A stretch of DNA of 64,000 bases, taken from the NCBI GenBank assembly GCA_001244265.2, contig CDLV01000012.1, forward strand, positions 124,001 to 188,000. The letters run 5' to 3'. Positions 56,091 through 61,016 of the stretch are shown here, in pieces. Source of the DNA: Microbotryum violaceum. Lineage: Eukaryota. The translations under genes and the position numbers were made by a program. Position 1 is the first letter of the stretch. Each line of letters opens with the position of its first letter. The notes below the pieces were generated by a model. It had not been told where the DNA came from and did not search any database. It worked only from the letters and a program-made list of their open reading frames with translations.

Positions 56091-57516
56091 TCAAAGGTGA
56101 GCCTCAGGGTGGGTCAAACTAATGACCGAAGGCTGTCCTCCCGCCTTGGACAAGACCCTGCACTCGTCGACGAAGCTGGTGAACATGTTGATCGTGTCGA
56201 GCGGTCCACCGGCCGACTCGGGGTGGAACTGCACGCCCCACACGCGCTTGCCCGAGGCTTCGGTCGATTTGATGCCTTCAACCGACGCATCGTTGGCGTT
56301 GAGGAAAAAGGGTTCCCAGCCTTTGGGGAAGGGGTCCACGAGTTCGAGCGCATATTGGTCTATTGAATTGAAGCAAGTCCAGAGTAGTCAGCATGTGCTC
56401 TACACGTCAGAAGAGCACGTTCTGACAGGAGAACTCACGGTTCTGCGAGGTGACGTAGACGCGACCGGCTTTGATCGCACCGGACGAAGCGAGGGCGAGC
56501 ACGGGCTGATTGTGGCCTCGATTGCCGAAGCGCATCCTGTACGCGTCCAAACCGGCGGCAAGACCGATAATTTGGTGACCCATGCAGATACCGAAGACGG
56601 GCTTGTCCCACTCGTTGATCGTCTTGCGCACGTGCACGGCCGCTTCCATACAATGTTTGGGGTCACCGGGACCGTTGGATAAAAACAGGCCGTCGAACTG
56701 ATCGCGCACGGTGTTGAAGTCAAAGTTCCAGGGGAAGACGGTCACGGAAGCACCACGGCGCGTCAACGAGCGGAGAATATTGGCCTTGGCGCCAAAGTCA
56801 AGCAGCGCGATCTTGACATCGCCCTCGGGGTTCAAAGTGTAGATCTCCTTGGTCGAGACCTGGTCAACAAGGTTCTCAATCGAAGGATCCCAGAAGTCGG
56901 CCGCAGCGGGCACGACTTCGTGGCCCTCACCAGTCGAAAGCTTGGACAGGGTCGAGCCTCTGTTGCGGAGCAGGGTTGTGATCGCACGGGTGTCGACGCC
57001 GGTGATGCCGGGAACCCCGTGGCGATCGCACCACTCGTGCAAGGACTCGACGGCTTGGTAGTGCGAGTACTTTTCGGCGAGGTTGCCGACGATGACCCCG
57101 GCGCATTGCACGCCGTTGGACTCGAGCAAGAGGGGGGGTCCGTTGGGGTCCTGAATCGAGGCGTTGTTGGGAACACCGTAGTTACCAATGAGCGGGGTCG
57201 TGAAAACGATGAACTGGCCTCGGTACGAAGGATCGGTCATGGACTCGGTGTAGGAGGTGATGGAGGTGCTGAAGACGGATTCGCCGTAGCGGGAGATGGG
57301 GGCACCAAAGGCTTTTCCCTCGAAGCGCTCACCGGTCTTGAAGTGCAGCGACGCGGGGCGGTTGGGGTTGAAGAGGTTAGTGCTCTTACCCGTGGTCGGG
57401 GTCATGGTCGCCGAAGCAGGGCGCTGCGCATGGGTCGCCAACGAGCGGAGGGAGAAGCGAGCGGTAGCAGCGTGGCGCCAGAGCGGAGAGGGGCGAGTCG
57501 CTGCGGCGAGCATCAT
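56091..57516 (-). CDS. CPA1: Carbamoyl-phosphate synthase, arginine-specific small chain (exons 57516-56439, 56359-56091)
   Basis: YTESMTDPSYRGQ, PLIGNYGVP, LFLSNGPGDP, FGICMGHQ, SQN/HQYA and VQFHPES; mitochondrial presequence. Confidence 0.95.
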
Positions 57517-57571
57517 GGTCTAAGTGATATGTGGCGGCAGATGGATGATAGAGAGGTCGAGGTAGTCTCGA

Positions 57572-57973
57572 TCAGTCTTGAGACTTGTGGATGATCGAGT
57601 CGAGGTAGTCGTAACGAGTCTGGTTGTGATAATAAAACCGGGGCGACGGGCGTGACGGAGCGGATAAGATAAGGCGGCGAGGCAAGCGAGCTTGTCAGTC
57701 GAGCTCGAGTGCGAGTCCAGTACCAGCCACAATGGCTCACCTCTGAGCCGATATAGCCAGCTAGCCTGTGGTATCGAGAAGGGGCACAGAGTTGCAACTC
57801 GGATGTCAGTCACTGCTGCTATGGGCCGCCATCGACCCGCGACCGAGTCGTGCTGATGCGAAACCGTGACTTGACTAGCTTGACTCGTCGGCCTCGCCGC
57901 GTCGTTCGCAAGCCAGTCAATCGTCGCCGGGTGACGGCGCGAAACCGACAAATTCGTGGATATGTCCTTACAT
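57572..57973 (-). promoter_or_regulatory. Spliced uORF encoding an arginine attenuator peptide-like 24-mer, MLAGYIGSETRYDYLDSIIHKSQD
   Basis: Exons 57973-57972 (AT), 57765-57741 and 57619-57572. Introns GTAAGG...CTGAC...CAG and GTGAGC...CTGAC...CAG. Carries a T-x-x-D-Y-L core and lies directly upstream of CPA1. Confidence 0.8.
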
Positions 57974-59921
57974 GAAACAGTGGGCAGCACGGCGGCGGAT
58001 TCCAGAGTGGTGGGGTTCAAATGAAGAAACGGGGTTTGCGTCGCGAAGTAGCGGATGCAAAGGCGGGCAGGCTTGTTGGGGTGCTCGGCTGCTTGGTGTC
58101 GGTGGGTGATGGAGGGAAAAAGGCATAGGCCGGGTAGCCGCCCCCACCCTCGCGGCGCTCCTTGGCCCAAAAAGGCCCGAGAGCAACCAAAGCCAAGAGC
58201 GCACGAGTCGCTGCTAACCCATGCTACCCATAGCCTCTCAGGGGTCCGCTTTACTCCGCGGGAATTCTGTGGGCTCTTGCGAGCATTTCACGGGAAGAGT
58301 CTTTGTGGGCTTTGTGGCGATTCTTGTCAAAATCAACAGCTCCCACAATTGATTACATCGAGCCGATTGCGCCAATGCGACCATGAAGTGCCAAAGTCGA
58401 GCTCCAGATCGAGCAACGAATTGAACTTGCTTCGAGCGCATCCCCACTTTGTTGAACCAGGACCTTTCGCAAGAGTCGACGTCGAAGATTCCATGATTTG
58501 TTCAGCTTTGTCTACTCATCTAAATCTTCGAAGTCGACATGACGGTGAACCCTGATGGACCTCCTCCTCTCACACGGTGCGGTCCGGGTGAACGCTTCCC
58601 GCCGCCCGGACTGGACCTGATCAGTGCAGTGCCTGCCACCACTCTTAAAGGATACTGTGGGGTCTCGGATGGGGGATCTACAACAATGAGAAGCGTGGCC
58701 CCTGGGGCGTGAGCATATCTGTAATGACAGTGGGGAGTTTGGACTCGAAAAGCTCTACATGGTCGTACTGTATCCAGTCGCTGAGGCGATCGAGCCATTG
58801 CACCCTTATTGTGTCAGGAGCGGTTCCAAGCTTTACCACTAGCCTATGCTGACCCCAAAAAGGTACAATATCCACTCTAAAAGGAGTGGAAAGCTTGGTA
58901 CTATGTATGGCCAACCCCCAGTGAAGCGAGCTAGGAATTTCAGGATTACTGGTTCATGACACATTGCCTGGACCTCACCGATTCACAAGGGTGAATCTAG
59001 ATCATCCTCCGCTCGCGGTCCCCAGTCAAGAGTGTTACTTGGGAAAATCTTGCAGGCAACCATACGAGGACTCGACCTCGCGTCCATCCTCTGGCCCCCA
59101 GGTCGACTATGTTTTCAACTCGATGTTCTTTCATGCGACATGGCCGGCGACTTCAAAACCTACTAGCACGTTTCAGGCGCATCATGCGCATCATGCGTCT
59201 CGGGCGTTCACCGGCCCCCACTTGGGGTGGGTCTGCTCGATATACAGGTGACCGTCACGGGCGAACAGACCAGAAAGATAGGGGCTAGGGGCATCGCTGC
59301 CAAGGTGAGGCGAGCGAGAATATTGACCGCGCGAAGCCGCCTGGAACACTGCACAACATAGCAAACAAAACCGAGATCATCCCATTTCAGGGTTTTCTTT
59401 GTTGTTATGAAAACTGTCCAAGCGTTTAATTCCAAGTCGCTTTGCAGGCCGTCTCGTCTGGCGAGTGTTGGTTTGCGATCCTCGGACCTCGCGGGGCGAC
59501 TTAGGAGTCCAGACCACGCAGCACGGTGTGACGGGCCGAATGGGTGCTTTCGGGCCTGCATAACTACTAAGCGTTCATTGTCGGCGGAATTCGGGCTCGT
59601 TGCTAAAGTCTGTTGCGAGAGACTACTTGGTAAACCTCTCAGTCGTGCCTTTAGTACTCTCCTGAAGGGACAGAGCTTTTTTCCCGGCGGGCTTGAACTG
59701 AAGCTCTCTCGCGAATGCTAGCGGGCTTGACAGTACCCAGGAGAGATCAATCGAGAAGGCATAGGGGAATGGAGAGGGCGCAGCTTGTTAATGAACTGCC
59801 AGGCTAAGGCGGATCAGCGGTAGTGGCAGCGGCGCGTCAAGTAATAGGTTGGGTAATCGGCCTAATGGGACCTTATCCCTCCCCGTGTTGCGCGATCATA
59901 TGCATCCCTTCTTGCGCCGCC

Positions 59922-61016
59922 ATGAGCAACTCCCACCAAACTCTGGCCCACAAGTTGCTACCTCACACAAATGAGGAACCATGCCACCCGTCAGATGAAG
60001 CGGGCAACAGCTCTGGCATGACACAAGCGGTGCGAGAACCAAGGGTGGCATCAGCGCAACTGCCATCAGCACATCCCCTCGGCACCGTGACCGTCGCCTC
60101 ACCGCCATTTCGACCCGCGCTCGCACCGGGTAGCAGCCATAGCAAGCCATAGCAAGCTGATCCGTCCCGCTTCATCAGCAGCTACGACGGTGCCAGCTCG
60201 CTCCCATACCTCCAACAATGCGGGATCACGCACATGTTAACTTCACCTCTGAATACGAGGATTGCTTCCCGTCGCACTTCGTCTACCTCCGCCTTCGGGC
60301 AAGGGTTAAGAGCTCGGAACGACTGGGCCCCTGTTTTGACCAAGTGGCTGATTTCGTCATCAAGGTACAACACGCAGGTGGCCGAGTGCTCGTGCATTGC
60401 CAAGAAGGGATCTCGAGAAGTGCGGCCTTGGTCCTCGCAGTCATGATCATGAACGAGATGCAGACGTTGAATCAAGCTTTCGATGTTCTTCGAAGCGCCA
60501 GACTGGTTATTGAACCCTCTTCAAACTTTTTGAGGGAGTTGAGGGCACTCGAACGTCGCTTGTTTGGCGTTTTAAGCACGAGACGTTTAACACCGGCCGA
60601 AAAGGCGTCCACCGACGACTTGGAAGCGTCGGATGACATCGACGAAGAGCTGACCCGTCACTGACCTCGATGGCCGCCATAAAGGAGACGAGAGAGACCG
60701 TCAACAGAGGACTTCCGGACCGCCATCGCTTTTGGGCGCGGCATGGATACCTCCAGTGCGTTACCCAAAATCATCAGCGATGCGGTGTACAAGACCTTTT
60801 TATGTTTACGCGCGGCGAGAAGAGCGCGACCTCCGAGCACGCGCCGCATTGGCTCGGTTCTTCAATGCCTTCGTCGATGCAGGAGTAATCGACCGCGTCG
60901 AGTTGCGGAAGATCTCGCAGAAGATCTTTGAGAGCGAGGAATGGGACGATTTCGCGATGGAGGACGTGCCCTATGCCGCAGGATATGCTCGCGAGTTACT
61001 AGCGCAGTTGACCTGA
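59922..61016 (+). pseudogene. Dual-specificity protein phosphatase, frameshifted
   Basis: GITH...VNFT, VLVHCQEGISRSAALVLA and PSSNFLREL. Motifs are spread over different frames, with a 10-bp tandem duplication at about 60138-60157. Confidence 0.75.

Follow-up and report, generated by a model that had tools for sequence, protein, structure and literature searches.

A candidate divergent arginine attenuator peptide encoded by a spliced uORF with an intron-split start codon in the CPA1 leader of Microbotryum

CPA1 and the spliced uORF in its leader

The window analysed here is the whole stretch of 64,000 nucleotides of Microbotryum violaceum contig CDLV01000012.1, and the features of the locus under study all lie on its minus strand (Table 1). 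The gene at this locus has no internal stop and a single 79-nt intron (56438-56360), which was skipped in the contigs of three of the four sequencing runs examined. The top match of its product among 3025 database matches was a Microbotryum saponariae protein (97% identity), followed by proteins of other Microbotryomycetes; several of the matches were named arginine-specific or CPA1, and a few were automatically named CAD. One further match was found in the genome (locus L011, contig C8, 1037927-1041853; 44% identical), in which the glutaminase domain is followed, by eye, by large-subunit-like sequence, and which to judge from this arrangement is a URA2/CAD-type paralog. That the window gene itself could be a fused paralog of the URA2 type was rejected, as it codes for a stand-alone protein of 448 amino acids with the domains PF00988 and PF00117. 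Therefore, these two domains, the 97% match and the URA2-type nature of the sole other match in the genome identify the gene as the CPA1 of a Microbotryum. As the first 40 residues of the protein include five Arg or Lys and no Asp or Glu, we infer that this basic, acid-free N-terminus would be a mitochondrial presequence. The CPA1 ATG (57516) has an A at position -3, and the leader upstream of it is single-copy, with one match in the genome. Elsewhere in the window, a frame on the plus strand (60161-60664) carries an HCxxGxSRS motif, which we take to be like that of a dual-specificity protein phosphatase.

Table 1. Coordinates of the features of the CPA1 locus in the window
Feature	Position	Strand	Remarks
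Upstream in-frame ATG	58124..58126	minus	C at -3; inside the X12 contig; for a transcript starting above it, 75-codon form with unchanged stop
Leader exon 1	57972..58166	minus	Upper end is the reach of the X12 contig; closing AT (57973-57972) is part of the uORF start codon
ATG-TAA start-stop, intron 1 retained	57968..57973	minus	Retained form in X11
Leader intron 1	57971-57766	minus	206 nt, GT..AG, donor GTAAGG, ends CAG; spliced out in X12 and X2, kept in X11
GAGTCA (TGACTC on the opposite strand)	57881..57886	minus	Within intron 1
8-codon ORF inside intron 1	57806..57832	minus	Retained form only
Exon 2, microexon	57765-57741	minus	25 nt; G of the ATG and codons 2-9
Leader intron 2	57740-57620	minus	121 nt, GT..AG, donor GTGAGC, ends CAG; skipped in X12, X11 and X2
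Exon 3, uORF part	57619-57572	minus	Codons 10-24 and the TGA ending at 57572
Joined uORF exons	57973-57972, 57765-57741, 57619-57572	minus	24-codon open frame
Spacer, uORF stop to CPA1 ATG	57517..57571	minus	55 nt, without ATG
CPA1, arginine-specific carbamoyl-phosphate synthetase small subunit	56091..57516	minus	448 aa, PF00988 and PF00117

A reading of the letters alone (the sequence-only reading) had proposed that two introns in this leader assemble a uORF for a peptide of 24 amino acids ending 55 nt before the CPA1 ATG, and every one of its coordinates could be verified. Intron 1 interrupts the start codon of the uORF (AT|G) and has a branch motif, CTGAC, at 57809-57805, whereas intron 2 is in phase 0, between codons 9 and 10, with its branch motif at 57698-57694. 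When the region from 58130 to 57500 was searched with the list of donor motifs, the only two donors detected were those of introns 1 and 2. The core residues of the peptide are all encoded in exon 3 (Thr10, Arg11, Asp13, Tyr14, Leu15, Ile19, His20 and Lys21, with His20 in the column of Trp19 of the known peptides), and the split start codon reads with a T at position -3. The same reading had described this start codon as created by splicing, which holds in that the intron splits AT|G, but the letters ATG are already present in the unspliced sequence because the G of the donor follows AT; what splicing opens is the frame behind the ATG.

Other details of the leader introns were also recorded. 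The branch motif of intron 2 lies 78 nt before its acceptor (57698-57620), although an AAG occurs sooner, at 57691; the corresponding distance is about 100 nt in the leader of relative L002 (about 1797-1899), as compared with about 30 nt in the CPA1 coding intron. A second AG is located 5 nt past the acceptor of intron 1 (57766-57761), and its use would delete the uORF ATG; this alternative acceptor appeared in no contig of the four runs examined. Retention of intron 2 alone would produce an 84-codon uORF (57973-57513) overlapping the CPA1 start codon by 4 nt, a form that was not seen as a spliced form in the contigs of the same four runs.

Splice forms in assembled contigs

Splicing was followed in 4 of 14 listed runs, all of which consist of assembled contigs and none of which is recorded as RNA, so joints were used to mark spliced contigs. 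Such contigs show the presence of a form and not its share, and rarer forms drop out. The junction 57972/57765 was present in two of the four runs (X12 and X2) and the junction 57741/57619 in three (X12, X11 and X2). In X12, one contig of 1803 nt, with no letters differing from the window, skips introns 1 and 2 and the coding intron; as it reaches 58166, some transcript form includes 57973 rather than starting below it. In X2, which belongs to another study and is about 94-95% alike, the same three joints were found at a depth of 245.9, with an unspliced piece at a depth of 2.8. None of the 40 differences listed, out of 76, falls inside the uORF in X2, and no insertion or deletion is listed in its uORF exons. 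Both junctions that the sequence-only reading had predicted are thus joined on one contig in X12 and in X2, from two studies.

The two remaining runs gave different results. X1 revealed no joint, and its low-depth unspliced pieces (2.6-4.1) are uninformative on splicing. X11 belongs to the study that also includes X12; its contig lacks intron 2 and the coding intron but is unbroken from 57741 to 58000 and keeps intron 1, for which no joint is listed. Because the 25-nt exon 2 is shorter than the 31-letter index word, each contig path would reflect single molecules carrying that pair of splice states. The CPA1 contig of X11 is 6114 nt long and extends about 4.3 kb beyond 56000, past the 3' end of CPA1; transcripts that overlap between neighbouring genes may have been merged in it.

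Conservation of the peptide and its relationship to fungal attenuators

A scan of metagenomes detected nine CPA1 loci, six of them with usable leaders (L002, L004, L005, L006, L008 and L009). L001, L003 and L007 were left out: their upstream DNA is too short, and they duplicate L009/L001 or L002, with an identity of 100% or 99.97%. No further CPA1 relatives were found in 159 stretches of genome contigs or in 8 of viral contigs. Judged from the best match that carries a name, three of the leaders (L009, L002 and L004) are Microbotryomycete-like and one (L005) is Agaricomycete-like; L006 and L008, from more distant basidiomycetes, had no close match with a name. For each CPA1 gene, the 650 nt upstream of the ATG were taken, and all uORFs in them that have 18-32 codons and at most two GT..AG introns were enumerated and ranked by mutual ungapped similarity, without use of any peptide motif; the donor and branch lists were chosen after the relatives' leaders had been seen, and identical lists were applied to the controls.

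A peptide with Asp-Tyr-Leu/Ile was the top candidate in the seven leaders (the window and its six relatives), a count that is not one of independent cases because the leaders share kinship. In the leader of the window it was the sole candidate of 18-32 codons, with a score of 133. Candidates were also found in 185 of 194 control stretches of the window (2099 in total), where the best scores had a mean of 46, a standard deviation of 17 and a maximum of 100, and none of these 185 stretches reached 133. The introns of the relatives are predictions, and for L004 and L006 other start models exist. The conservation that the sequence-only reading had called for was borne out, with a similar Asp-Tyr-Leu/Ile uORF predicted in all six usable basidiomycete leaders. 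In the seven leaders the uORFs have 21-26 codons; the Asp-to-stop distance is 10-14 residues, and the stop is followed by the CPA1 ATG after 13-64 nt. The uORF ATG has a T at -3 in every one of them, as compared with 459 of 1878 ATGs in the window background, whereas the CPA1 ATG has an A at -3 in six of the seven; these contexts would fit leaky scanning as in yeast CPA1. The sequence TGACTC/GAGTCA, presumably similar to the Gcn4/CPC-1 site of general amino-acid control, occurs within 650 nt before the CPA1 ATG in 7/7 leaders or promoters and in 25/98 control stretches of the window; in the window, L009 and L002 it is part of an intron of the uORF.

The four Microbotryomycete-like peptides, which stand before CPA1 proteins of about 77-79% identity, all have Thr-Arg-x-Asp-Tyr-Leu, and the peptide is retained among the relatives despite differing intron positions. 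The AT|G intron is predicted in three of these four leaders (window, L009 and L002), whereas the predicted intron of L004 (1781-1854) begins one base later, right after the ATG, which makes a one-base shift of the intron possible; a second model for L004 with an upstream ATG scores nearly the same (185 vs 191). L005, L006 and L008 have no start-codon intron and carry an intron at or just past the Asp codon, and intron 2 of the window has no counterpart at the same place in the six relatives' leaders. The three leaders with AT|G have an acidic residue directly after Asp-Tyr-Leu and the other four a Ser, a hint, from three against four related sequences, that this acid may be a lineage trait.

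The relationship of the peptide to the arginine attenuator peptide (AAP) family was examined with the Pfam profile PF08252 (Leader_CPA1). The exon of L004 matches positions 9-23 of this profile with E 0.003 and 17.4 bits, under the cut-off of 18.5, and it gave no match to PDB sequences at E 10. L004, L009 and exon 3 of the window align without gaps over the core, with Thr, Arg, Asp, Tyr, Leu, Ile and Lys in common; L004 is the one intermediate to PF08252, and it is through it that the window peptide is tied to the AAP family. The same alignment sustained the register that had been read for the window peptide, with Asp13, Tyr14, Leu15 and the His at the Trp19 column. Scans of exon 3 of the window (15 codons, with an intron-derived flank) and of the L009 exon gave no match to PF08252, and a search of the genome with the profile found nothing at the uORF and one weak match elsewhere (E 4.63, 12.9 bits). 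The missing match does not reject homology, because the profile is short and the exon has 15 codons.

In papers on yeast and Neurospora, high arginine is described as making ribosomes stall on the uORF's stop codon in a way that needs Asp13 or Asp12, respectively, and the uORF as having a weak start codon that is bypassed by leaky scanning (PMC7969011, PMC7038982, PMC11550727). The CPA1 leader of the window resembles those of Neurospora arg-2 and yeast CPA1 in its single short uORF, of 24 codons, before the gene for the small subunit of the arginine-specific CPS, in the weak context of the uORF start, in the stop located shortly before the main AUG, and in the Asp-Tyr-Leu core, where the Asp at position 13 corresponds to D13 of yeast and D12 of Neurospora as given in PMC7969011 and PMC7038982. 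It differs from them in the His at the Trp19 column, in the acidic residue right after Asp-Tyr-Leu, in the lack of a PF08252 match for the window pieces, and in the intron-split start codon and the 25-nt microexon. The residues described as critical in Neurospora are Asp12, Tyr13, residue 14 and Trp19 (PMC3130931 citing Spevak 2010). The sequence-only reading had noted the change of this Trp to His; His20 does occupy the Trp19 column here, but the loss is not peculiar to the window gene, because Trp is absent at any position from all seven basidiomycete peptides. Seven residues after the Asp, these have His (window), Thr, Val, Tyr, Tyr, Gln and Tyr. To work, the window peptide would have to use His instead of Trp at this place, and it was filed as a divergent variant and not as a canonical AAP because it lacks the Trp19 feature.

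Basidiomycete AAPs are already in print, and the window peptide is a divergent variant of them. The CPA1 uORF of Cryptococcus (CNAG_00976, CND01050) is described as ribosome-occupied and its mRNA, about 5-fold up without Upf1, as a target of nonsense-mediated decay (PMC7049704), and CopciAB_446268 of Coprinopsis cinerea as having a putative AAP uORF (PMC12230235). The uORF described here is likewise in a basidiomycete CPA1 leader, although those two fungi are Agaricomycotina and the window belongs to the Pucciniomycotina (Microbotryomycetes). An AAP-like uORF of Toxoplasma also shares the Asp (PMC8370653). Introns inside start codons are known and relatively rare (Nielsen and Wernersson 2006, PMC1626468); as in the cases given there, the intron of the window is at the very start of the frame, and that of L004 is of the common type, right after the ATG, but in the window the intron lies within the start codon (phase 2, position 1) and in a regulatory uORF instead of a main CDS. 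A literature search that did not include Hood 2007, Spevak 2010 and Dever 2020 found no Microbotryomycete AAP, no split start codon in a CPA1 uORF and no regulated retention in such a leader. Either Hood 2007 or Spevak 2010 may already list the variant without Trp and with a split start. Spevak 2010 is said to compare many predicted fungal AAPs; Hood 2007 reportedly found that AAP coding regions vary in the number and position of their introns, that ascomycete AAP uORFs can contain introns and that a diverged basidiomycete AAP was functional.

Proposed function and alternative explanations

The position before CPA1, the splicing observed, the six relatives and the Pfam bridge through L004 support the proposal of the sequence-only reading that the peptide is a divergent basidiomycete AAP, which would be orthologous to those of the Neurospora arg-2 and yeast CPA1 uORFs. 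By analogy with these, we infer that the uORF would stall ribosomes in an arginine-dependent manner. A working AAP whose introns are constitutively spliced is in our opinion the probable explanation. The pre-mRNA of CPA1 loses two leader introns, which results in the 24-codon uORF, whose AUG takes AU from exon 1 and G from exon 2. When arginine is low, this AUG, being weak with its U at -3, would be bypassed by most scanning subunits, and these would start at the CPA1 AUG, which has an A at -3. At high arginine, the ribosomes translating the uORF would stall at its stop codon via the nascent Asp13-Tyr14-Leu15, and the stalled ribosomes would block scanning and decrease the synthesis of CPA1; stalling would also probably expose the mRNA to nonsense-mediated decay. 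Both leader introns are most likely ordinary and constitutively removed, and some of the Microbotryomycetes most likely share the start-codon intron by inheritance.

The result that does not fit with purely constitutive removal is that of X11, where the sole contig over the site keeps intron 1. If a working AAP were combined with a regulated removal of this intron, retention would leave an AUG-stop together with the 8-codon ORF, and CPA1 would escape from arginine control in certain conditions or life stages, a two-tier regulation that we regard as unlikely. Its only positive sign is the X11 contig, with intron 2 and the coding intron out and intron 1 in, which can be set against X12 from the same study, in which intron 1 is skipped; this contig would stem from molecules that had lost intron 2 but not intron 1, although an unfinished splicing intermediate would explain it equally well and the case comes from contigs of one run. 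In X2, moreover, the depth of the unspliced piece is 2.8 vs 245.9 for the spliced form. At 206 nt, intron 1 is longer than the other two introns of the gene (121 and 79 nt), and an intron at AT|G is also predicted in L002 and L009, with ATG-TGA as the outcome of its retention; but in L004, with its intron one base later, retention would lead to a 37-codon frame. The start-stop on retention that the sequence-only reading had described is real, and X11 has the retained form, but any AT|GTRA donor yields a start-stop, so neither ATG-TAA nor ATG-TGA is evidence of a switch or of selection, and ATG-TAA as a designed element was rejected as a consequence of the GTRA donor consensus. The AAP core is absent from the ATG-TAA, from the 8-codon frame and from the 52-codon ORF that ends at the same TAA in a retained leader starting above 58126, and with three upstream ATGs such a leader may be repressed or degraded instead of freed. 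The wider idea of a Microbotryomycete class of AAPs without Trp and with a split start codon, in which regulated retention would delete the attenuator and so switch the sensor on and off above the arginine signal, is also unlikely.

A decayed or re-purposed AAP, spliced and translated so that it dampens CPA1 with its arginine sensing lost or directed to another ligand, was considered quite unlikely. The absence of Trp19, with a non-aromatic residue at its column in three relatives, the Asp-Ser that replaces Ser-Asp after the core, and the lack of a Pfam match for the pieces of the window and L009 would agree with decay. Against it, Thr-Arg-x-Asp-Tyr-Leu is kept in 4/4 Microbotryomycete-like peptides, and this conservation argues against a peptide-independent uORF, which would not retain the motif; in addition, repression by the AAP of the basidiomycete Cryptococcus has been reported for a cell-free system from Neurospora (PMC7049704 citing Hood 2007). 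Finally, translation could begin mainly at the ATG at 58126, giving a 75-codon uORF that carries the AAP core C-terminally, with the split ATG as a secondary start. The ATG at 58126 is in frame, with no stop, and inside the X12 contig (to 58166), but its context is poor (C at -3), a pyrimidine run directly below it, at 58123, may indicate where transcripts start, the main contig of X11 ends at 58000, and 6/6 relatives have a model of 21-26 codons with T at -3, all of which makes this form highly improbable.

The working AAP therefore remains the preferred explanation. The split start codon and the microexon show why ORF tracks and Pfam miss uORFs of this kind. Were the retention of intron 1 regulated, it would constitute a splicing switch on top of a translational sensor, of which no description was found. 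How the nascent peptide and the ribosome sense arginine is still presented as unresolved in the literature consulted, and the seven peptides without Trp, four of them without even a Tyr at this place, constitute a natural allele series. Stalling by these peptides would mean that the aromatic residue is dispensable or has been replaced, whereas an absence of stalling would mean that a whole lineage has lost or changed the sensor and yet conserved the core.
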